A DNA stretch of 64,000 nucleotides from Asaia bogorensis (GTDB lineage: Bacteria; Pseudomonadota; Alphaproteobacteria; CACIAM-22H2), in NCBI GenBank assembly GCA_945892765.1, contig CAMDDQ010000001.1, positions 40,486 through 104,485 on the forward strand. The letters are read 5' to 3'. Positions 10,681 through 60,496 of the stretch are shown here, one piece after another. The notes beneath the pieces are model-generated. The model had not been told where the DNA came from. It saw only the letters and a list, made by a program, of their open reading frames with translations, and ran no database searches. Each line of letters opens with the position of its first letter. Position 1 is the stretch's first letter. Both the position numbers and the translations under genes were made by a program.

Positions 10681-11072
10681 GCCGGCCCCCCCTCGGACAC
10701 GTCAACGTTTATCTTGAGCCCCCGAACCCGAATCGACACTTCGCGAAAGGTCCGAGCCGCCAGGATTTCATAGACACGTTAGGGTTATAGCCCGACGGTT
10801 GTCAATTTCGGAGTGTCCTTCTACAGTGCATTTCTGTCACGTCGAACGCGCCCGCAACAGGGGGGAACCAACGGGTGACAAAGCGGCGACGTTCCAGTAC
10901 CCGCTATGGAGCCTGATCGGCGATTTCCCCATGGCCGCGCTGATGGCGATGGGCAGGATGCAGCGAGAAGTGGACAAAGTTGTGGGGGCCCGTCGGGCGA
11001 AGCCCGACTGACTCCGGAGTCGGCCGTTTCGCCGGCAGGGGCCTCCACGCCCCCAATAATCCAGGTCGGTGT

Positions 11073-11687
11073 TTAGGTCTTCCGGCGCAGCGGGCGGATG
11101 CGGGTGAGGTCGGCGGCTTCGGGTTCTCCCCAACGTTTGACCAAACCGAGATCGAGGTCGAACTGATCGAGGATGCGGCCGACCGTTTGGTTGACGATGT
11201 CGTTCACGGTGGCGGGTTTGGCATAAAAGGCCGGCACCGGCGGCATCACCACCGCGCCCATTTCCGTCACCGCCGCCATGCTGCGCAGATGTCCCAGATG
11301 CAGCGGCGTTTCGCGCACCGCCAACACCAGCCGCCGCCTTTCCTTCAGGGTGACGTCGGCGGCCCGGCTCAACAGGCTCGAGGTCACGCCGGAAGCGATC
11401 TCCGACAAAGTGCGGATCGAACAGGGCACGATCGCCATGCCGAGTGTCTTGAAGGAACCGCTGGCCAGCGACGCACCGATATCCGTGACCGCATGGAAGA
11501 CCGCAGCGAGATCGCGCACTTGGGCGACCTTTAGCGTCGTTTCATGGGCCAGCGTGATTTCGGCGGAGCGCGACATCACCAGATGTGTTTCGACATCGGT
11601 CCCGCGCAGCGCTTCCAGCAGCCGAATGCCGTAGACGACGCCGGACGCGCCGCTGATGCCGACGACTAATCTTTTGGGAGAAGCCAT
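11073..11687 (-). CDS. ubiX: flavin prenyltransferase UbiX
   Basis: MASPKRLVVGISGASGVVYGIRLLEAL matches the UbiX/Pad1 N-terminus. Start placed at M13 of the ORF-track frame. Confidence 0.85.
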   Translation of the reverse strand: MASPKRLVVGISGASGVVYGIRLLEALRGTDVETHLVMSRSAEITLAHETTLKVAQVRDLAAVFHAVTDIGASLASGSFKTLGMAIVPCSIRTLSEIASGVTSSLLSRAADVTLKERRRLVLAVRETPLHLGHLRSMAAVTEMGAVVMPPVPAFYAKPATVNDIVNQTVGRILDQFDLDLGLVKRWGEPEAADLTRIRPLRRKT

Positions 11688-11827
11688 GACAACCATCCTA
11701 CCGGCGGCCCGGCAAAGCGGCAATGCGAAGCGCGGCCTTGCCTCGCCGGTATGAAAGACGCACCCTATCCTCCGTGAGCGCCGATTCGCCAGAAGCCGAA
11801 AACGCCAACGCCACCCATCGCGAAAAG

Positions 11828-12397
11828 ATGGCGCGGATCAAGGCGGCACGCGACCGCATGATGGCGACCAAGACCGAACAACGCGGCCTGCTCATTGTCC
11901 ATACCGGCAAGGGCAAGGGCAAATCGACCGCCGCCTTCGGCATGGCCTTGCGCGCCATCGGCCATGGGATGCGAATCGGCATCGTGCAATTCATCAAGGG
12001 CGCGTGGAATTGCGGCGAGCGCGGCGCGCTGGAACATTTCGCCGAGTTGGTGACCATCCGCGCGATGGGGGAGGGCTTCACCTGGGAAACCCAGGATCGC
12101 GAGCGCGACATCGCCGCGGCGAGCCGGGCCTGGGACATGGCAAAATCGATGATCGCCGATGCCGGTTACGACATGGTGATTCTCGACGAGTTGAACGTCG
12201 CGCTGCGTTATGGCTATCTGCCCCTCACCGAGGTCCTGGATGTGTTCCGGTCGCGGCCGCCGGGGCTGCACGTCGTTGTCACCGGCCGCAACGCCGCGCC
12301 CGAATTGATCGACCTCGCCGATCTCGTCACCGAAATGACCATGGTCAAACATCCGTTTCGCGATGGAATCAAGGCGCAGAAGGGGGTCGAGTTTTGA
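11828..12397 (+). CDS. cobO: cob(I)alamin adenosyltransferase CobO/BtuR
   Basis: GLLIVHTGKGKGKSTAAFGMALRAIGHGMRIGIVQFIKG is the BtuR P-loop signature. Start at M36 of the ORF frame by N-terminal alignment. Confidence 0.85.
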   Translation: MARIKAARDRMMATKTEQRGLLIVHTGKGKGKSTAAFGMALRAIGHGMRIGIVQFIKGAWNCGERGALEHFAELVTIRAMGEGFTWETQDRERDIAAASRAWDMAKSMIADAGYDMVILDELNVALRYGYLPLTEVLDVFRSRPPGLHVVVTGRNAAPELIDLADLVTEMTMVKHPFRDGIKAQKGVEF

Positions 12398-12444
12398 GGC
12401 CACCCGCCGCCATTCACGCCCCTACCCAAAGATTGGAGGCATCC

Positions 12445-13146
12445 ATGCTCCGCACTGCTATCCCGCACATCAACCAATCCCGCCGGTCCTTTTTGACCAC
12501 CGGGCTGGCTGCCGGAATCGGCGCCGCAACCTTGGCCGCGCCCGCCCGCGCCGATCAGCCCCTGGTCGATCGCGCCCGCCTTACCTTGCAGGCGCTGCTC
12601 GTCGACCGTGACTACGCCACCTTTCAACGCCTTCTGCCATTGGCCAAGGCCACCTTGATCGTGCCCAATCTGTTCAAGGCCGGATTGTTCCTGGGCGCCG
12701 AGGGCGGCGATGGCGTTCTTCTCGTCCGCGATCCGGGGCGCGGCTGGAGCCCGCCTGCCTTCTATGCCCTGGCCAGCGGCAGCATTGGCCTGCAAATCGG
12801 CGTGCAGGACGCCCAAGTCGTGTTGTTGATCATGAACGAGAAGGGGCTGAACGCGCTGACCCGCGATCAGGTCAAGCTGGGCGCCGACATCAGCATCGCC
12901 GCCGGCCCGGTCGGCGCCGGGCTGGACGCGGCAACCACGACCAATCTGGGCGAGGACATTTATTCTTTCTCCAAGACCCGCGGGCTGTTCGGCGGCTTGT
13001 CGCTCGAAGGCACGGTCATCTATCGCCGCGACGATTTTAATGCCGCCTATTACGGCGCCGGCGCCACGACCCAGACCATTGTCTTCGACCGGCGTTTCAC
13101 CAATCCCGGTGCCGCCGCCTTGATCGCCGCCCTGCCGCGAACCTGA
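12445..13146 (+). CDS. SYLF (Ysc84/DUF500) lipid-binding domain protein with a Tat signal
   Basis: Twin-arginine signal [25 protein letters not shown] and GGAG RBS. It is inserted between cobO and cobQ. Confidence 0.6.
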
Positions 13147-13151
13147 CCGCC

Positions 13152-14669
13152 GTGAGCCGCGCGGGGGTGACGGATACCGGCATCCGCCGCGACCGCAAGC
13201 GAACCGCCGCCCTGATGATCCAGGGCACCGGCTCGGACGTTGGCAAATCCATGATCGTCGCCGGGCTGGCTCGCGCCTTCACCCGACGCGGGCTGCGCGT
13301 GCGCCCCTTCAAGCCGCAAAACATGTCGAACAACGCCGCGGTCACCGAAGATGGCGGCGAAATCGGGCGCGCCCAGGCGCTTCAGGCCCGCGCCTGCGGA
13401 ATCGCGCCGCATTCGGACATGAACCCAGTGCTGCTCAAGCCGCAATCGGACACCGGCGCGCAAATCGTCGTGCAAGGCCGCGTGTATGGCTGGGCGAACG
13501 CCGCGGAGTATCGCGGCCTAAAAGGAACTTTGCTTCCCGCCGTGCTCGAAAGCTTCGGCCGGCTCGCCGTCGATGCCGATCTGGTCCTGGTCGAAGGCGC
13601 CGGCAGCCCAGCCGAAATCAACCTCCGCGACGGCGACATCGCCAATATGGGTTTTGCGCTCGCCGCCGAGGTTCCGGTCGTTCTTGTCGGCGACATCGAA
13701 CGCGGCGGCGTCATCGCCAGCTTGGTCGGCACATATTTGCTGCTGGAACCCGCCGAACGCGCGGCCCTGAAAGGTTTCATCGTCAACAAATTCCGCGGCG
13801 ATGCCCGATTGTTCGACGACGGCATCCGCGCAATCGTGGAGCGCACGGGCATGGAATGTCTCGGCGTGGCGCCCTATTTCGATGCCGCGTCGACGTTGCC
13901 GGCGGAGGATTCCGCCAGCCTCGATTCGACCAAGCTCCGGCGCCGGACTGACGGCCATATCCGAGTCGCCATCCCGCGTTTGCCGCGCATCGCCAATTTC
14001 GACGATCTCGACCCACTCGCGGCCGAAGCCGACGTGTCGGTTGAAATGGTGCTGGCGGGCCGGCCCTTGCCCGAAGATGCCGAGCTGATCGTGCTGCCGG
14101 GTTCCAAATCCACGCTGTCCGATCTGGCTTTCCTGCGGCGGCAGGGCTGGGACATCGACATCCTCGCCCATGTCCGTCGCGGCGGCACGGTGATCGGCAT
14201 TTGCGCCGGTTATCAGATGCTGGGCACACACATCGCCGATCCCGACGGTGTGGACGGAAACGCGGGTGAAACACCCGGTCTGGGCTTGCTCGCCGTGGCA
14301 ACGATCATGGGCAGGGATAAGACGCTGATCGCGGTGAAGGGTGGCGATGCCCTAAGCGGTGCGGCCATCCGCGGTTATGAAATGCATGTCGGCGCCACGA
14401 CCGGCCCCGATCTTAAGCGCCCGATGCTGGTCATCGATGGCAAGCCGCATGGCGCCTCCAGCCGCGATGGCCGGGTCCGCGGCTGTTATATCCATGGGTT
14501 GCTCGCGTCGGACGATTATCGCGGCAAACTCTTGCGGGGCTTGCGGCCGAGCCGCGACGGCGGCGTTGCCTACGACACGCTGGTCGAATCTACCCTCGAC
14601 CGACTCGCCGATCATTTGGCCGAAGCACTCGATCTCGACCGGCTGCTGACGATAGCCCGAGCGCGGTGA
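13152..14669 (+). CDS. cobQ: cobyric acid synthase CobQ/CbiP
   Basis: [13 protein letters not shown]-loop and a C-terminal glutamine amidotransferase domain. The start may lie at a later codon. Confidence 0.9.
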
Positions 14670-39707: not shown

Positions 39708-40696
39708 GCGCACCTCCTGACGATTTTATTCAGTCCTTCAAGGCGGCGCCGCTGACGTTGCGCGGCCGCCTGTTGCGGCTTGGCCCCTCGATCGACTCGA
39801 TCTTGCGCCAACACGGCTATCCTCAGCCGGTGGCGTCGGTGCTTGGGGAGGCGCTGACACTGGCCGCCCTGCTCGCGGCGACGCTGAAATACGACGGCGT
39901 CTTCACGCTGCAAACCAAGGGCGACGGAGCGGTCAGCTTACTGGTCGCCGACGTGACCAGCGAGGGCGCCTTGCGCGGTTATGCCCAATACGACGGCGAC
40001 CGCCTGGCGACTATCGCCGCCCCTGGGCAGCCCGGGCCATCGGCATCGGTGCCACGCCTGCTTGGCGCCGGTTACCTCGCCTTCACCGTCGACCAGGGAA
40101 CCCACACCGAACGTTATCAGGGTATCGTCGAATTGACCGGGGTGACGTTGGCCGACTGCGCGCATCACTATTTCAGGCAGTCCGAACAATTAGAGACGGG
40201 GATTCGGATCGCCGTCGGACAAGGCGTCGATGGCGCTTGGCGCACGGGCGGTCTGTTGGTGCAAAGGCTGCCGCCGGCCGGCGGCGAGGTCGCGGCGCTG
40301 TCGCCGAGACAGGACGAAGACGAGGCCGAGGATGGCTGGCGGCGCGCCTTGGTCATGGTCGGCAGCGCGGCCACGTCCGAATTGCTGGACCCGGGGCTTG
40401 CCGCGGAGATGCTGCTCTACCGCTTGTTCCATGAAAAAGGCGTGCGCGTTTGGCCGCCCAAGAGTCTTCGCCATTCCTGCCACTGCTCGCCACACCGGGT
40501 CGAGGCCATGCTGCGCCAATTGCAACCCACCGAACTCGCCGATCTGTTGGTCGACGGGAAGCTGATCATTACCTGCGAGTACTGCAATGCGCGCTACACC
40601 TATGACGACCATGCCCTACTTCGCCTTGACCCAAAGGCCACCGGCGCCCAATTTGTTCAACATCGAGACGTCGACAAGAGGCGGAACCCGCGATGA
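39689..40696 (+). CDS. hslO: redox-regulated chaperone Hsp33
   Basis: Hsp33 fold with the C-terminal zinc centre CHCSPHRV...CEYCNARY. Confidence 0.85.
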
Positions 40697-53713: not shown

Positions 53714-54472
53714 TTAGAGGCGCACGTACTTTATGTCTTGGCCCCGGATTTCAAATTGAATCTTGACCCAGACGTCTTGGGAATACCACAGGTTCAGATC
53801 AAGGTCGCCGGTCATGCGATAGCGGCGGGCATCGCCGGGGGCGCCCGGCGCCGGATTTTTGTCGGGACCCATCTCCGTGACATCAACTTTGGAGATTTCG
53901 CCGGTTTGTGTGTTGAGGAGGTTCTTCTGGTTCACGGTCGCGATGTTCCAGTAACTGGCTGGAATCAGCCCGCCGGGAACAACGAGCTGGTTCGCCGGGG
54001 TATTCACGACCGCCTTGTCGCCGTCGGCGCGGCACGAGACCCGGTAAGGCGTGCCGTCGTCATCGGTCTTGGTGTCCAGCGACACCAGGCGCTCGCCACG
54101 CCAGATTTCGGTGTTGTGATGCACATAGCGAAATAGGGTCAGAAACCCGAGCTGGTAGCGGAGTTCAATGTCGATCTCAACCTTCAATTCATCGCCGTTT
54201 TCGGTAAAGACCACGCTGTGTTTACCGAAGTCGCTGCCGTTGCGAAGGACGAGGAAATCCAGGCGACGTGTTTGCGGCACGGAGGCAAGCAGCCGCCGTG
54301 ACCGACGCTGATCGGTCTGCGCCCACACATCCTTAGGCGCGAGAATCGAGCCAAGGGCCCCTGCTGCGGTGCACAAAAAGCGACGGCGCGACGACGAATC
54401 GGGGACCGGCGCAACACATAGCCGCGCAGCCTCCCTCAGATTTTCTCTTTCGTCGTTTGCCCTTCTCTCCAC
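53714..54472 (-). CDS. hypothetical Tat-secreted protein
   Basis: Twin-arginine signal SSRRRFLCTAAGALGSILAPKDVWA. A GTG start is inferred because the longer ORF would overlap the divergent hupE gene. Confidence 0.45.
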   Translation of the reverse strand: MERRANDERENLREAARLCVAPVPDSSSRRRFLCTAAGALGSILAPKDVWAQTDQRRSRRLLASVPQTRRLDFLVLRNGSDFGKHSVVFTENGDELKVEIDIELRYQLGFLTLFRYVHHNTEIWRGERLVSLDTKTDDDGTPYRVSCRADGDKAVVNTPANQLVVPGGLIPASYWNIATVNQKNLLNTQTGEISKVDVTEMGPDKNPAPGAPGDARRYRMTGDLDLNLWYSQDVWVKIQFEIRGQDIKYVRL

Positions 54473-54628
54473 CGCGATCTCGTTGGTCCCGTACGCCGAA
54501 GACCTCGGCGCAATAGCCGGAGAACAATGCGCAACCGAAGCAATTGTAACAAATCGTGATCGAATGTCGACAATTGACGTTGCGGCGGGTCCGTAATAAC
54601 CCTTGACGTTCACTCGACAAAACAGGGG

Positions 54629-55234
54629 TTGCCCATGGAATCGCGTCGGCCCGGAACGTTCGCCTTGCGCGCATTTCTTCCGCTGGTTGGTGCCAGTCTG
54701 TTTGGAAGCTCGGCCGAAGCCCACCTTTTGGGCGCTCATGGCGCGGCGGCGGCGGGAGGATTCGCGCATCCCTTCGTCGGCCTCGACCACCTCGTGGCGA
54801 TGGTCGCGGTCGGGGTGTGGGCGGTGCAGCAAGGCGGGCGCGCTATGTGGGCCGTCCCCGCTTCCTTCGTCGGTGCGGTGACGATCGGCGGCGCCTTCGG
54901 CCTGGTTGGGGGCACCCTGCCCGCAACCGAGTCGGTCATCGCCGGTTCGCTAATCGTTCTCGGCCTTCTGGTCGGGCTGGCGGTGCGCCCGGCGCCTTGG
55001 ATCGCGGCCTGCATCGTCGGCTTTTTTGCGCTGTTTCACGGTTATGCCCATGGCGGCGAATTGCCGGTGGCCGCCGCGCCTTGGCAGTACGCGCTTGGGT
55101 TCATCGTCGCGACCGCCACGCTGCATGGCATCGGCATGCTCGGGGGTCTGGCGCTTGGCGCCAAACCCCTTCTGCGTTGGGCTGGTGCCGGCGTGACCGC
55201 CGCGAGCCTGATGTTTGTTCTCGGAGCCTATTGA
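54629..55234 (+). CDS. HupE/UreJ family metal (Ni/Co/Zn) transporter
   Basis: HPFVGLDH signature after the signal peptide and 6 TM segments. Confidence 0.8.
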   Translation: MPMESRRPGTFALRAFLPLVGASLFGSSAEAHLLGAHGAAAAGGFAHPFVGLDHLVAMVAVGVWAVQQGGRAMWAVPASFVGAVTIGGAFGLVGGTLPATESVIAGSLIVLGLLVGLAVRPAPWIAACIVGFFALFHGYAHGGELPVAAAPWQYALGFIVATATLHGIGMLGGLALGAKPLLRWAGAGVTAASLMFVLGAY

Positions 55235-55793
55235 TCGGGACACACCCATGAGGCCGAGTGGCGAGCGGCGGGCCTCCGCGTTGCCGCAGGCGGGTGTGAC
55301 GCCACGCCAATCGCCTCGCGGCCGGCGTTCGCCATTCCCAAAAGACAGCCACGATCACAAGGCTTGTGTCTCCACCGCGGTTGCCGCGGCCGAGGCCTAT
55401 TGCGGGCACCGGCGCCAACGCCTCACGCCGATGCGCAAACGTGTGCTGGAAATGGTGTGGCACGGTCATAAGCCGGTCGGCGCCTATGCGCTTTTGGACG
55501 GTCTTCTCGAGGAAGGCCACCGCGCGGCGCCGACGACGGTCTATCGCGCCTTGGATTTTCTTCTCGGGCTGGGGCTAGTGCACCGCATTGCGTCACTCAA
55601 CGCCTTCGTGGGCTGTCCTCATCCGGGCCAGCCGCATACCGGGCAATTCCTCATTTGCGAGGCCTGCGGCAGCGCCGAGGAAATCGACGATGACGGCATC
55701 GCCCAGGCGGTGCGGCGGGGGGCCGAACGCATCGGCTTTCGCGTGCAGCACCCGACCATCGAAATTACCGGACGCTGCCCGCACTGCCGCTGA
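55215..55793 (+). CDS. zur: Fur-family transcriptional regulator, Zur-like
   Basis: N-terminal HDHKAC...EAYC...RLTPMRKRVLEMV, typical of alphaproteobacterial Zur. C-terminal CxxC pairs (CEAC, CPHC). Confidence 0.75.
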   Translation: MFSEPIDRDTPMRPSGERRASALPQAGVTPRQSPRGRRSPFPKDSHDHKACVSTAVAAAEAYCGHRRQRLTPMRKRVLEMVWHGHKPVGAYALLDGLLEEGHRAAPTTVYRALDFLLGLGLVHRIASLNAFVGCPHPGQPHTGQFLICEACGSAEEIDDDGIAQAVRRGAERIGFRVQHPTIEITGRCPHCR

Positions 55794-56835
55794 GCCGATG
55801 CGCGGCCCACAGCGCGGCCGCGAATAGAGCCATCGCACCCGCCTGATGAAGAATGGCCAGCGGGATCGGAACGACGTAGAGCAGCGTTATTATCCCGAGC
55901 GTGACCTGGAGCAGGGTTGTGGCGAGGACGACGTGGATGGCGAAACGGATTTCGCCAGAGTGGTCGGCGCCGCGCGCGCGCCACCCCAACCAAACCGCCA
56001 CCGCCAGGATCGTTATCCCCAGAAGCCGGTGATTGAATTGCACGGCGGCGACATTCTCAAACGCGTTCGCCCACCACGGCGACAGGTCGAAATAACCTTC
56101 CGGGATCAGTCTTCCATTCATCAGGGGAAAGGTGTTGGAAGTCAGCCCGGCATCCAGCCCGGCGACGAAAGCGCCGGCCAACACTTGTAGAAATACGAGG
56201 ACCGCCAGGATGGCCGCCCAACGCCCAAGCGTCCGCGCCGTTTGGTCCGGGCGCGAACGCCGCGAACTAAGGCCGAAAGCCAGCCACAACATCCACCCCA
56301 AGACAATCGTCGCCAGACCCAAATGCGCCGCCAGTCGATAGGGGCTGACATCGGGTTCGTCCACCAGACCGCTTTGCACCATGTACCAGCCGAGAGCACC
56401 CTGTAATCCGCCCAGCGCCAAAATGCTCCAGCACTGCAACGCCAGACCGCCGCGCAACCGGCCCTTGATCACGAACCAGGCGAATGGCAGAGCAAAAACC
56501 AAGCCGATCAGCCTTCCCCACAACCGGTGTGTCCATTCCATCCAGAAGATCGCCTTGAACTCGGCGAGCGACATCCCTTCGTTCAATTTCCGATATTCCG
56601 GAAACTGTTGGTATTTGCCGAAAGCATCCGCCCAATCCTGGGCGGACAGGGGCGGCAGGGCACCGAGTAATGGCTGCCATTCGACAATCGACAGGCCGGA
56701 TTGGGTGAGACGGGTCATCCCGCCCAACACGACCATGACAAAAACCATGGCGCAGCACAGATACAGCCAAAGCGCCACGGCCCGGGATTTCGGCGCCGGG
56801 GAAATTTCGGCGGAGGGGAGCACGTCGACCTTCAT
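55765..56835 (-). CDS. ctaA: haem A synthase CtaA (COX15)
   Basis: Eight TM segments with conserved His pairs. Confidence 0.85.
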   Translation of the reverse strand: MKVDVLPSAEISPAPKSRAVALWLYLCCAMVFVMVVLGGMTRLTQSGLSIVEWQPLLGALPPLSAQDWADAFGKYQQFPEYRKLNEGMSLAEFKAIFWMEWTHRLWGRLIGLVFALPFAWFVIKGRLRGGLALQCWSILALGGLQGALGWYMVQSGLVDEPDVSPYRLAAHLGLATIVLGWMLWLAFGLSSRRSRPDQTARTLGRWAAILAVLVFLQVLAGAFVAGLDAGLTSNTFPLMNGRLIPEGYFDLSPWWANAFENVAAVQFNHRLLGITILAVAVWLGWRARGADHSGEIRFAIHVVLATTLLQVTLGIITLLYVVPIPLAILHQAGAMALFAAALWAAHRLSGSAGSVR

Positions 56836-57007
56836 GAGCCGTTCAATACGCCGCCGATCCTCGCCACGCAATTCGTTCCCTATTGCGGACCCCGCATTTC
56901 CTCACGCCACGTGGGGATGTATCGGACATGACACGCCGCTGACCGAGTGTTAAGAGCCTAGGCCGAAATCCAACCCTATTTCACTTCCTTGAGCGTAGTT
57001 TTAGGAC

Positions 57008-60000
57008 ATGAACGACAATCGAACCGCGATCGCCGGGACCCTCGCTCTCGCCCATGGCTTGTCTTTCCCCGATCTGTATGACCGCGACGGTCTTGCCAAG
57101 CTCGACGCCCAGTTTATCGCTTCCCTGCGTCAAGCCGATGGCGCGCTGTGTGAACTCCTTCTCAGCGGGCGCGCGGCCCCCCAGACCCTTTCCGCGAAAG
57201 ACGAGGGAAATCTTCTGATCGCGCTGGCCCCGCATCTCGATGCCTTCATCGTCGCGCTGTTCGGGATCGCCCAGGAAGCCACAGCACTTCGCCAGAGTCA
57301 TGCCCGGCTGAACCCGCTTTCCGAGGTCAAGCGGCTGTTCGTCCAACGCCGCGCGGTGAAGGACTTTGGCGCCGCGACCGCGATGGCCTTCGACGGTCCG
57401 GCGCTGACTTCCGCCTTGGAAAAGCGGATCGGCGGGAAGTTCACCGAACTCACCTTTGCCGAGGCCGTGGCCCAATGGCTGAACGATGAGGCCGCGAATG
57501 CCGAGGCGCTGGACCTCGCCGCGCGTTACGCTGCCTGGGCGGTGCACAGCGATGCCGGTCGCGGACGCCACGGCGCCGGCGTGTTGTTCAAGGTGCCGCG
57601 TAAAGTCGACCACGAACACCTGGTGCCGGTCGAAGCGACATCGGTGAACGGCGTGCCGGCGGTGGGTCTTGCCCCTGGGCATTGGCGTCACCGCGAAGGC
57701 TTCGCCCTGACGGACCCCGGCATGGACCTGACCCATGCCCTCGACCAGGCCAATTACTGCATCTGGTGCCACAATCAGGGCAAGGATTCCTGCTCGAAGG
57801 GCCTCACGGAGAAGTCCGGCGCCTTTCGCAAGAGCCCGCTGGGCGTGACGCTTGCCGGCTGCCCGCTCGAAGAAAAAATCTCGGAAATGCACGTGGCCAA
57901 GGCCGCGGGCGATGCAATCGGCGCCCTCGCAATCATCGCCGTCGACAACCCGCTGGCCGCGGCGACAGGGCACCGCATCTGCAACGACTGCATGAAATCC
58001 TGCATCTTTCAAAAGCAGGAGCCGGTCGACATTCCGCAGGCCGAGACCCGAACCCTGAAAGACGTCCTCGACCTGCCTTGGGGTTTCGAGATCTATTCGC
58101 TGCTGACGCGCTGGAACCCGCTCAATCTGCGCCGGCCCTTGCCGCTGCCGGCCAGCGGCCGGTCGGTGCTGGTTGTCGGTCTCGGGCCGGCGGGGTTTTC
58201 GCTGGCCCATCACCTGCTCAATGACGGGCACCATGTTGCGGCCATCGACGGGCTGAAAATCGAACCCCTGCCTGAATCGGTATCGGGGGTAAAGCCCAAT
58301 GGCGAACGTGTGTCCTTTGCCCCGATCCGGGACATCGCGTCGCTCAATGAATCCTTGGACGACCGCGTGATGGCGGGTTTCGGTGGCGTCGCCGAATACG
58401 GCATCACCGTGCGCTGGGACAAGAATTTCTTGAAAATCATCCGCCTAATGCTGGAGCGGCGCGCCGCTTTTGCGATGTTCGGCGGAATCCGCTTTGGCGG
58501 CACCGTCACCGTTGAATCCGCGTTCGCGATGGGGTTTGACCACATCGCCCTGTGCGCCGGCGCGGGGAAACCGACGGTCATCGACATTCCCAACCGTCTT
58601 GCCCGCGGCGTGCGCGCCGCCTCCGATTTCCTGATGGCCCTGCAGCTGACAGGCGCGGCCAAAGCCGCGTCCATCGCCAATCTGCAAATCCGCCTGCCGG
58701 TGGTCGTGGTGGGTGGCGGCCTGACCGCTATCGACACCGCGACCGAATCGATCGCCTATTACCCGCGGCAGGTCGAAAAATTCCTGTCGCGTTACGAAAT
58801 CTTGGCGGCGGAGCGGGGCGAGGCCACCTTGCGTCAGGGCTGGACCGAAGAAGATCGCGAAATCGGCGAAGAATTCATCCTTCACGCCCGCGCCCTGCGT
58901 GCCGAACGCGAAGCGGCAACGCGCGAAAGTCGGGCGGCGGCCTTTTTGCCCCTGCTCGAATCCTGGGGCGGCGTGACCATCGCCTATCGCCGGAAGCTGA
59001 TCGAGGCACCCAGCTACACCCTCAACCACGAAGAAGTTCACAAGGCGATGGAAGAAGGCGTGCGTTTCGCCGAAGGGCTGACCCCGGTCGCCATAGACAC
59101 CGATTCGCGCGGTTATGCCGCAGCCATGCGTTTCACCGGCGCCGACGGCGCCGAGGCGGTGCTTCCGGCTCGCTCGATCTTGGTCGCCGCGGGCACCCAA
59201 CCGAACACCGTGCTAGCGCGCGAGGACCCGGACCACTTGGAGCTCGACGGCCGTTTCTTCCGCGCCCTCGACGAGGCCGGAAACCCGGTGAAGCCGGAGC
59301 GCCTGGCCAAGCCCGGCGCGGTGCATGTGCTGACGCACCTCGCTCCCGATGGCCGCGCCGTCAGTTTCTTTGGCGATCTGCATCCTTCATTTTCGGGCAA
59401 TGTCGTCAAGGCCATGGGCGGCGCGAAGCAAGGCTACCCGCTGGTCAGCCGCATGTTGGGCCGGGTCGCGCCGCGCCGATCCGATCCGACGGCGCTTCTT
59501 GCCACGCTGAACGATGAGCTTCGTGCCCGCGTGCACGAAGTCGTGCGGCTGACGCCAAACATCGTCGAGGTCGTTGTGAAGGCGCCCGCCGCCGCCCGCG
59601 AATTCCGCCCCGGCCAGTTCTACCGCCTGCAGAACTACGAGACGCTGGCTTTGACCGTGGATGGCACGACGCTGGCCATGGAAGGCCTTGCTCTCACCGG
59701 CGCGTGGGTGGACCGGGCGAAGGGCTTGGTTTCCGTGATCGTCCTGGAGATGGGCGGCTCGTCCGATCTCTGCACCTGGCTGAAGCCGGGCGAACCCGTG
59801 GTGTTGATGGGCCCGACGGGAACGCCGACGGAGACGCCGGGCGGCGAGAGCGCGATTCTGGTGGGCGGCGGACTCGGCAATGCGGTGTTGTTCTCGATTG
59901 GGCAGGCGCTACGGTCGGCCGGGTCTCGCGTCGTTTATTTTGCTGGCTACAAACGCGGAATCGACCGCTACAAGGTGGAGCAGATCGAAGCGGCCGCCGA

Positions 60001-60496
60001 TATCGTGGTGTGGTGCTGCGACGAAGCCCCCGGATTTCAGCCGACGCGGACACAGGATCGCGCTTTTGTCGGCAATATCGTCGATGCCATGTTGGCCTAT
60101 ACGACGGGTCGCTTGGGGCCGGCGCAGATCCCGCTATCCGGCGCCCAGCGCATGATCGCCATTGGGTCCGACGGCATGATGGCGGCGGTGACACGCGCCC
60201 GTCATGGCGTGCTCGCCCCCCACCTCAAGCCCGGCCATATCGGCATCGCCTCCATCAACTCGCCGATGCAGTGCATGATGAAGGAAATCTGCGCCCAATG
60301 CCTGCAGCCGCACCGTGATCCCGTGACCGGCGAGGAGACCGTCGTCTTTTCGTGTTTCAACCAGGACCAGTTGATGGACGAGGTCGATTTCGCCGCGCTT
60401 CGTCAGCGCCTCGGCCAAAATAAGGTTCAGGAAAAGCTGACACGGGCCTGGATCGATCGCTGCCTGCGGCGGCTCAATCTGCGTAAGGCGGCCTGA
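57008..60496 (+). CDS. large multidomain flavoprotein with a GltD/NfnB-like FeS-FAD-NAD(P)H module and a PyrK/NfnA-like FNR module with a 2Fe-2S site
   Basis: Unknown ~270-aa N-domain; CIWCHNQGKDSC...GCP...CNDCMKSC 4Fe-4S motifs; VLVVGLGPAGFSLAHHL Rossmann; FNR-like RPGQFYRL...; C-terminal CMMKEICAQC...C cluster. Confidence 0.75.
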   Translation: MNDNRTAIAGTLALAHGLSFPDLYDRDGLAKLDAQFIASLRQADGALCELLLSGRAAPQTLSAKDEGNLLIALAPHLDAFIVALFGIAQEATALRQSHARLNPLSEVKRLFVQRRAVKDFGAATAMAFDGPALTSALEKRIGGKFTELTFAEAVAQWLNDEAANAEALDLAARYAAWAVHSDAGRGRHGAGVLFKVPRKVDHEHLVPVEATSVNGVPAVGLAPGHWRHREGFALTDPGMDLTHALDQANYCIWCHNQGKDSCSKGLTEKSGAFRKSPLGVTLAGCPLEEKISEMHVAKAAGDAIGALAIIAVDNPLAAATGHRICNDCMKSCIFQKQEPVDIPQAETRTLKDVLDLPWGFEIYSLLTRWNPLNLRRPLPLPASGRSVLVVGLGPAGFSLAHHLLNDGHHVAAIDGLKIEPLPESVSGVKPNGERVSFAPIRDIASLNESLDDRVMAGFGGVAEYGITVRWDKNFLKIIRLMLERRAAFAMFGGIRFGGTVTVESAFAMGFDHIALCAGAGKPTVIDIPNRLARGVRAASDFLMALQLTGAAKAASIANLQIRLPVVVVGGGLTAIDTATESIAYYPRQVEKFLSRYEILAAERGEATLRQGWTEEDREIGEEFILHARALRAEREAATRESRAAAFLPLLESWGGVTIAYRRKLIEAPSYTLNHEEVHKAMEEGVRFAEGLTPVAIDTDSRGYAAAMRFTGADGAEAVLPARSILVAAGTQPNTVLAREDPDHLELDGRFFRALDEAGNPVKPERLAKPGAVHVLTHLAPDGRAVSFFGDLHPSFSGNVVKAMGGAKQGYPLVSRMLGRVAPRRSDPTALLATLNDELRARVHEVVRLTPNIVEVVVKAPAAAREFRPGQFYRLQNYETLALTVDGTTLAMEGLALTGAWVDRAKGLVSVIVLEMGGSSDLCTWLKPGEPVVLMGPTGTPTETPGGESAILVGGGLGNAVLFSIGQALRSAGSRVVYFAGYKRGIDRYKVEQIEAAADIVVWCCDEAPGFQPTRTQDRAFVGNIVDAMLAYTTGRLGPAQIPLSGAQRMIAIGSDGMMAAVTRARHGVLAPHLKPGHIGIASINSPMQCMMKEICAQCLQPHRDPVTGEETVVFSCFNQDQLMDEVDFAALRQRLGQNKVQEKLTRAWIDRCLRRLNLRKAA

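Follow-up and report, generated by a model that had tools for sequence, protein, structure and literature searches.

A single-chain Nfn-like iron-sulfur flavoprotein of the RP005/PRK06567 family encoded next to ctaA in Asaia bogorensis

The flavoprotein gene and its distribution

We analyzed a 64,000-nucleotide stretch of contig CAMDDQ010000001.1 from the Asaia bogorensis assembly GCA_945892765.1 (forward-strand positions 40,486 to 104,485; hereafter, the window), in which a gene for an iron-sulfur flavoprotein of the RP005/PRK06567 family lies between the divergently oriented heme A synthase gene ctaA and a convergent open reading frame (ORF) for a P-loop protein (Table 1). The encoded protein is very probably a NAD(P)H-dependent iron-sulfur flavoprotein with the architecture of Nfn, the NADH-dependent ferredoxin:NADP+ oxidoreductase.

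The original prediction, made from the letters of the window, had assigned a 1162-aa flavoprotein to this position, and the assignment holds: the ORF opens with an ATG that has an AGGA 3 nt 5' of it, and its homologues are full length. The start is sound because homologues align from residue ~12 on. Long antisense ORFs overlap the gene, for example 56981..58234 on the reverse strand, and are the usual artefacts of high-GC DNA (window G+C 62-71%); the ORF on the forward strand is the actual gene, because homologues match its translation. A homologue search with the 1162-aa protein found at least 8000 clusters, the best 120 of which were all full length (1155-1187 aa) and 69-100% identical to the query. 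Taking both searches together, full-length relatives from different phyla are 65-72% identical to it. A scan of species-representative genomes yielded 80 loci with products of 65-71% identity over nearly the whole length, hosted by Alphaproteobacteria (Stellaceae, Reyranella, Azospirillum, and Dongia), Burkholderiales, Gallionella, Nitrosomonadales, Nevskia, and Acidobacteriota (Bryobacteraceae and Terriglobia). We conclude that the flavoprotein is real and under strong selection.

Along their full length, the acidobacterial and betaproteobacterial homologues share 65-67% identity with the window protein and are about as close to it as many alphaproteobacterial ones; in the flavoprotein tree the phyla form blocks, yet the blocks stand close together. 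This cross-phylum closeness reflects either extreme constraint or inter-phylum transfer. A second homologue search, with the distant member P0147 as the query, mostly recovered the main clade again.

Table 1. Coordinates of the flavoprotein gene, its domains, and neighboring features in the window
Feature	Coordinates	Strand	Basis or remarks
Fused Nfn-like iron-sulfur flavoprotein gene (RP005/PRK06567 family)	57008..60496	+	ORF list, translation, homology; 1162 aa
N-terminal domain, Pfam RP005_N, aa 1-240	57008..57727	+	helices 20-187, beta-hairpin 208-221, conserved linker RxGFxLTD
NfnB/GltD-type iron-sulfur domain, aa 241-375	57728..58132	+	two predicted [4Fe-4S] sites; Cys positions, Fer4_20 match
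FAD/NADPH two-dinucleotide-fold module, aa 376-835	58133..59512	+	Pyr_redox_2, motifs, Nfn alignments, Foldseek
NfnA/PyrK-like module, aa 836-1162	59513..60493	+	FAD barrel, NAD fold, predicted Cys4 [2Fe-2S] site; phmmer, Foldseek
Heme A synthase gene ctaA (COX15-CtaA), divergent upstream neighbor	55765..56871	-	Pfam PF02628, E 4e-113
Divergent ctaA/flavoprotein intergenic region, 136 bp	56872..57007	.	contains CCACGTGG palindrome 56907-56914
Convergent P-loop ORF, 407 aa	60499..61722	-	
ORF following the P-loop ORF, 218 aa	61783..62439	-	no family match
Zur-like FUR-family regulator	55215..55793	+	metal-homeostasis cluster beyond ctaA (53714-55793)
HupE/UreJ Ni/Co transporter	54629..55234	+	same cluster
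DUF6134 protein	53714..54832	-	same cluster

Domain organization and predicted cofactor sites

An N-terminal domain followed by a GltD/NfnB-like and a PyrK/NfnA-like module in one chain, the order originally proposed, is what the sequence, profile, and fold comparisons agree on. Pfam matches comprised Fer4_20 at aa 283-346, which is sub-threshold, and Pyr_redox_2 at aa 386-749, and nothing else; the PyrK/NfnA-like region was detected at aa 840-1162 by sequence comparisons. The AlphaFold2 model of the flavoprotein, built from a 33-sequence alignment, had a mean pLDDT (predicted local distance difference test) of 91.4 and a predicted template-modeling (TM) score, pTM, of 0.91.

Each of the cofactor sites that the original prediction proposed to check (two [4Fe-4S], FAD, NAD(P)H, and [2Fe-2S]) has its predicted counterpart in the window protein. 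In the iron-sulfur domain, the predicted [4Fe-4S] ligands are C251-x2-C254-x7-C262 together with E346, which is aligned with the Glu of the KLER motif in Pyrococcus furiosus NfnL, and C285-P together with C325-x2-C328-x3-C332. As judged from these positions, the domain would follow the NfnB pattern of one Cys4 and one Cys3Glu [4Fe-4S] site. The FAD fold carries the motif GLGPAG (391-396), and the NADPH fold carries GGGLTAID (569-576) and YRR (660-662), all conserved across the family. In the PyrK/NfnA-like half, the GxxS/T motif reads MGGSSD and the glycine motif of the NAD fold reads GGGLGNAVL (953-961), aligned to GGGVGIATL of NfnA, and four Cys residues (C1089, C1095, C1098, and C1116) are the predicted ligands of the C-terminal [2Fe-2S] cluster. 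None of the eleven Cys residues varies among 80 close and 33 diverse homologues, nor does E346; in the same sets, GxGxxG, GGGLTAID, and Y660/R661 are invariant or nearly so. The FAD/NADPH module also has two family-specific inserts, one at ~aa 415-455 and a helical hairpin at ~aa 581-654, where the Nfn chain in the NfnL/NfnB alignment goes from residue 312 to 317 while the flavoprotein goes from aa 581 to 654.

The NAD fold varies within the family. The alignment over window aa 950-1085 separates a full subtype, with GGGLGNAVL and a segment of ~123 aa, from a reduced subtype, in which this segment is shortened to 53-100 aa and the glycine motif is lost (GEGYS, GQGF, and similar), with the [2Fe-2S] motif still invariant. 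The reduced-subtype member P0147 retains ctaA upstream. In the clade of the window protein itself, the NAD fold is intact and highly conserved. Since the NAD site is degenerate in many members, the family cannot have NAD(H) binding, and with it the canonical Nfn reaction, as its universal function.

The extra N-terminal domain without assigned function, which the original prediction put at ~270 aa, is present, although its size is nearer 240 aa. No Pfam match was obtained for aa ~10-240 with the Pfam set searched, which lacks the PF27156 model; PF27156, or RP005_N, named after Rickettsia prowazekii RP005, is precomputed for P0001, a protein 100% identical to the window protein, and for all close homologues. 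This domain is the least conserved part of the flavoprotein (37-58% per block versus 70-90% elsewhere). An exhaustive HMMER search with aa 1-280 matched 1437 representatives and revealed no other architecture bearing the domain. The listed matches begin within the first ~110 residues of the protein, with the one exception of P0146 (505 aa, residues 254-496); full-length carriers have 1007-1195 aa, and shorter ones look like contig fragments. Comparison of the AlphaFold2 model found no solved structure resembling the domain, which probably serves as a structural cap or as a partner-docking platform beside the cluster domain. In one homologue (P0154), a DUF559 (Vsr-like endonuclease) is inserted in frame within RP005_N at residues 173-275 (Pfam E 2e-41), which may result from insertion of a mobile element or from misassembly.

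Relation to catalogued families

The NCBIfam model NF005128/PRK06567 matched the flavoprotein collinearly (E 5.1e-227; aa 15-978 against model positions 4-924 of 1031) with a score of 756.3 bits, below the equivalog cut-off of 1072. By this measure, the window protein is a same-architecture homologue and not an NCBI 'equivalog' of the rickettsial proteins. Its architecture, from the N-domain through the PyrK-like half, is that of the RP005/PRK06567 family (R. prowazekii RP005, Ehrlichia ECH_0778), but it exceeds the 1031-position model by ~130 aa, and its NAD fold is intact, whereas the short (~1010-1060 aa) distant members no longer have one. The family is widespread in Alpha- and Betaproteobacteria, Acidobacteriota, and Rickettsiales. 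The window gene adds one member to a catalogued family.

Previous descriptions of the family are few: it was mentioned, with no explanation, as a 'GltD-UbiB chimera' that nearly all genomes of Rickettsiales carry (PMC3641634), and the Ehrlichia member was listed, without evidence, as a glutamine-to-glutamate enzyme, Ehrlichia having no glutamate synthase (GOGAT) (PMC4251998). Homology to a common and characterized enzyme would have told against the original prediction. The family is indeed common and catalogued (PRK06567, PF27156), but in the literature we found no RP005-family member with a demonstrated function, and the term 'RP005' gave unrelated papers only.

Curated hidden Markov models (HMMs) for GltD, NfnB-type 'gltA', PyrK, and NfnA-type proteins gave weak matches, all far under their cut-offs. 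The scores were 42.4 versus 447.7 (TIGR01317) and 38.4 versus 482.95 (TIGR01318) for GltD, 33.1 versus 314 for PyrK (NF000799/PRK00054), 84.7 bits versus 471.75 for the NfnB type (TIGR01316), and 57.2 versus 220 for the NfnA type (PRK06222). The likeness to PyrK is limited to the Cys4 [2Fe-2S] pattern and the fold.

Comparison with Nfn and other known systems

The Nfn subunits are the best relatives of the flavoprotein by sequence, profile, and fold. A single-sequence search of the PDB ranked the Nfn subunits of Thermotoga maritima (4ylf_A/B) and P. furiosus (5jca_L/S, 5vj7) highest (E 1e-11 to 1e-9), the separated halves also found Nfn subunits best among PDB sequences (phmmer with the C-terminal half: 4ylf_A 2e-13, 5jca_S 5e-10), and the family profile did the same with E-values of 3e-25 to 7e-19. 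In Foldseek comparisons, the NfnB-like half gave target-normalized TM scores of 0.75-0.80 to 5vj7_A, 5jfc_L, and 4ylf_B, and the NfnA-like half gave 0.83-0.89 to NfnS/NfnA, with Nfn subunits ranking above dihydropyrimidine dehydrogenase (DPD), GltD, and adrenodoxin reductase.

The resemblance to the characterized NfnAB pointed out in the original prediction is thus borne out for the closest relatives but is incomplete in detail. The modules and the predicted cofactors are the same, with FAD, NADPH (YRR), and a pair of [4Fe-4S] sites in the NfnB-type domain and an NfnA-type FAD barrel with an NAD fold and a C-terminal [2Fe-2S] site. However, the window protein is one chain in the order B-then-A, whereas NfnAB consists of two subunits encoded A-then-B, and it has the additional ~240-aa helical N-domain and the two inserts described above. 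The [2Fe-2S] cluster of NfnA is ligated by Asp-Cys3, whereas that of the window protein is predicted to be Cys4, as in PyrK; when the two are aligned, C1089 falls next to the Asp of 'MVDGTGMCGAC' in P. furiosus NfnS. The identity to characterized Nfn subunits is only ~20%, and the hosts also differ, the RP005 family occurring in soil and freshwater Proteobacteria, Acidobacteriota, and Rickettsiales and Nfn having been described in anaerobes. We conclude that the window protein is distantly homologous to NfnAB and departs from it in [2Fe-2S] ligation, HMM cut-offs, and subunit organization.

Two variants of Nfn bear on this comparison. The non-bifurcating Nfn paralogue of P. furiosus, Xfn or NfnII (5vj7), is the top Foldseek and profile match of the NfnB-like half and shows that an Nfn-like architecture need not bifurcate; Xfn differs from the flavoprotein in being a two-subunit, archaeal, anaerobic system without the N-domain and with unclear physiological partners. 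The 'Pattern C' fused Nfn homologues (Mobiluncus curtisii type; PRK12779-like), which are found in Actinobacteria and Proteobacteria, are uncharacterized and 40-90% identical to Clostridium kluyveri NfnAB (Liang et al., 2019, PMC6405883). Like the window protein, they are single chains with a C-terminal NfnA-like part, but they have ~950 aa and no RP005_N, and PRK12779 matches the window protein in its C-terminal part only (86 bits versus a cut-off of 1519). The RP005 family is distinct from Pattern C because the identity to C. kluyveri NfnAB is 40-90% there and that to Nfn ~20% here.

A more distant parallel is offered by mitochondria, in which electrons pass from Arh1 through Yah1 to Cox15; yeast Cox15 requires the ferredoxin Yah1 and the reductase Arh1 (PMC7140478). 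Arh1 is likewise an NAD(P)H-FAD reductase of the two-dinucleotide-fold superfamily that sends electrons via an iron-sulfur protein to heme A synthase. The fold relation is distant only (1cjc, target-normalized TM 0.49 by Foldseek), Arh1 has no iron-sulfur clusters, Yah1 is a [2Fe-2S] adrenodoxin and not a 7Fe FdxA, and the link to CtaA in the RP005 family is known from genomic context alone.

Genomic context

We clustered the ORFs that flank the gene at 163 loci, of which 80 came from genomes and 80 from metagenomes, two were copies of the P0147 locus, and one was on a plasmid. No universally conserved neighbor was found among them, and most clades show lineage-specific synteny only, for example with a short-chain dehydrogenase/reductase (SDR), a carbamoyl-amino-acid amidohydrolase-like gene, or an arginyl-transferase-like gene. 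The recurrent neighbors included no GltB-, PyrD-, or DPD-catalytic-domain gene. The common theme of those that recur is a ferredoxin and consumers of ferredoxin-type electrons.

The informative neighbor in the window is the divergent upstream ctaA, which the original prediction overlooked. Besides the window and its sister genome, ctaA was present in 22 of the 161 other distinct loci and was always upstream and divergent. On the flavoprotein tree, the ctaA-linked members fall into a Reyranella-like clade, the clade of the window protein, and two deep branches (48% and 56% identity); other neighbors differ between these groups, and ctaA stays.

A gene for an FdxA-type 7Fe ferredoxin (Fer4 + DUF3470) adjoins the flavoprotein gene on the same strand in five loci (L042, L115, L116, L119, and L131) and lies 2 kb off in another (L009). 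A sixth adjacent case, which with L009 makes seven linked loci, is the Acidithiobacillus caldus plasmid pTcM1 (L163, NC_010600.1, 4782-12456), on which fdxA directly precedes a homologue of 44.5% identity and 98% coverage on the same strand. These cases represent about five or six lineages, because the linked flavoproteins are only 58-79% alike. The co-directional gene order on pTcM1 is GntR, a flavoprotein resembling FrdA and adenosine phosphosulfate (APS) reductase, a 77-aa 2x[4Fe-4S] protein, a HEAT-repeat protein, fdxA, and the RP005-family flavoprotein, a cluster described as a 'ferredoxin/APS reductase/GntR' cargo module (PMC12375680). Porin and ABC-transporter genes lie beside it. As pTcM1 is a mobilizable plasmid of an acidophile, the family is horizontally mobile. 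Finally, a gene for a NIR_SIR sulfite/nitrite-reductase hemoprotein was found near the flavoprotein gene in eight loci, and in three of these it is immediately upstream on the same strand.

Other features around the gene were less informative. The convergent AAA ATPase gene noted in the original prediction exists as a P-loop ORF whose stop codon is 2 nt apart from that of the flavoprotein gene. Its sole family match was a weak, sub-threshold one to NACHT, with no NCBIfam or PADLOC match, and no homologue of it stands beside the flavoprotein gene in the 80 genome loci, the sister genome being the only place where one was found. We rejected it as a partner on the ground that it is not conserved next to the flavoprotein gene beyond the sister genome. 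The palindrome reported before the gene, CCACGTGG, is likewise present but behaves as a chance occurrence: the window contains one copy where 1.43 would be expected by chance, and none was found upstream at the 15 loci with ctaA linkage in the genome set. In the sister genome (protein 95% identical, spacer otherwise ~94% identical) it reads CCCCGCAG, with 3/8 positions changed. It was therefore rejected as a regulatory site. A promoter and terminator scan of the intergenic region gave no sigma-70-like site and nothing above shuffled sequences.

Beyond ctaA lies a metal-homeostasis cluster of a Zur-like regulator, a HupE/UreJ transporter, and a DUF6134 protein, and the same set occurs in the sister genome (L164); a FUR-family gene is also found a few kb upstream in L010 and L023. 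After the P-loop gene, the sister genome encodes a xanthine-dehydrogenase-type molybdoenzyme (Fer2, Fer2_2, MoCoBD) and a CobN/Mg-chelatase gene (10891-13557).

Proposed function and alternative explanations

On balance, we slightly favor the interpretation of the flavoprotein as an NADPH-driven, Nfn-type ferredoxin reductase that serves biosynthetic enzymes in aerobes. The protein would be soluble and single-chain, built as NfnB then NfnA plus the family-specific helical N-domain, and NADPH would reduce the central FAD. From there, one path would use the two [4Fe-4S] clusters to deliver electrons to an acceptor of low potential outside the protein, most likely a ferredoxin of the 7Fe FdxA type, or straight to an enzyme that depends on ferredoxin; another may lead through the [2Fe-2S] cluster and a second FAD to NAD+, as a possible end point in the subtype of the window protein. 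In aerobic cells with high NADPH and low NADH, the Nfn reaction would run in the NADPH-oxidizing direction and supply biosynthetic enzymes with reduced ferredoxin. What we observe of this scheme is the cofactor-binding motifs and an Nfn-like fold, and we infer the remaining steps. That ferredoxin is the partner of the flavoprotein is likely, and that the flavoprotein bifurcates electrons is somewhat doubtful. Candidate clients suggested by gene context are the sulfite/nitrite-reductase hemoprotein, the APS-reductase-like flavoprotein, and CtaA, the last of which would parallel the mitochondrial Arh1/Yah1/Cox15 pathway but is, taken by itself, an unlikely client. Retention in nearly every Rickettsiales genome counts as support for a housekeeping role (PMC3641634).

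Several observations weigh against this interpretation. Homology and gene context are the basis of everything said about function, the identity to characterized Nfn subunits is low, the predicted [2Fe-2S] ligation is that of PyrK and not of NfnA, and the scores stay far below every curated Nfn, GltD, and PyrK cut-off. Throughout the family, the FNR-type (ferredoxin-NADP+ reductase) RxYS/T FAD motif has its Arg replaced (EGLALT), and about half of the distant members that were aligned, P0147 with its ctaA linkage among them, have a degenerate NAD glycine motif and domain. As for gene context, about 80% of loci have no ctaA, fdxA, or NIR_SIR gene nearby, the Stellaceae, Burkholderiales, and Acidobacteriota clades show lineage-specific synteny only, and in the window itself no ferredoxin gene adjoins the flavoprotein gene. 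The linkage to ctaA is confined to Rhodospirillales-like clades and the two deep branches, and inherited synteny is therefore possible.

Three other explanations were considered. The protein might be a canonical bifurcating Nfn transhydrogenase, merely fused into one chain and working in the classical direction, in which NADH and reduced ferredoxin yield 2 NADPH. All predicted Nfn cofactor sites of the window protein, including GGGLGNAVL, and the ranking of Nfn subunits as the best sequence and fold matches speak for this possibility, which we nevertheless regard as quite improbable given the Cys4 ligation, the missed cut-offs, the NAD site lost in many members, and the gap in identity that sets the family apart from the Pattern C fusions. 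The hosts also argue against it, being soil and freshwater Alpha- and Betaproteobacteria and Acidobacteriota, with the gene kept by Rickettsiales as well; to our knowledge, they are largely aerobes with no obvious catabolic source of reduced ferredoxin. The names in the source annotations, namely a GltD paralogue, 2-polyprenylphenol hydroxylase (UbiB), or a dihydroorotate/dihydropyrimidine dehydrogenase electron-transfer protein, have in their favor these annotations themselves and the fact that GltD, DPD, and PyrK are detectable relatives. They are very improbable in view of scores far under every curated cut-off, the absence of GltB, PyrD, and DPD catalytic partners among the recurrent neighbors, and the lack of a monooxygenase domain in the flavoprotein, the 'UbiB' label being in this case what we take to be the legacy name of the FNR-like COG0543 domain. 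Moreover, Ehrlichia keeps the gene yet has no GOGAT (PMC4251998).

Alternatively, the flavoprotein may be a non-bifurcating NADPH:acceptor oxidoreductase that docks on one dedicated partner, with the PyrK-like half as an extra iron-sulfur/FAD wire, after the models of GltD for glutamate synthase, DsrL for DsrAB, and P. furiosus Xfn as input modules. The universally invariant core of NADPH, FAD, and two [4Fe-4S] sites plus [2Fe-2S], with an NAD site dispensable in many lineages, would suit such a module, as would the top fold match to Xfn (5vj7_A) and the recurrence of the partner-like NIR_SIR, APS-reductase-like flavoprotein, and ctaA genes alongside. However, there is no single conserved partner, about four fifths of the loci being without these neighbors, the tightest co-directional neighbor is a gene for a free ferredoxin, and the window's own clade retains a complete and strongly conserved NAD fold. 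We hold this explanation to be unlikely.

Implications

The RP005 family is widespread, 65-70% identical across phyla, and kept by Rickettsiales, yet no experimentally assigned function was found for it. If its members are NADPH-driven ferredoxin reductases, this would explain the supply of low-potential electrons in many aerobic bacteria without anaerobic ferredoxin-reducing catabolism. We know of no electron donor of bacterial heme A synthase identified to date, and the linkage to ctaA gives a concrete candidate for this role. A more far-reaching and rather improbable proposal is that the RP005 flavoprotein is the missing bacterial counterpart of Arh1/Yah1, that is, an oxygen-tolerant and possibly bifurcating enzyme that passes electrons from NADPH, possibly via FdxA, to CtaA and other ferredoxin-dependent biosynthetic enzymes. 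If true, this would explain the retention of the family in the reduced genomes of Rickettsiales.

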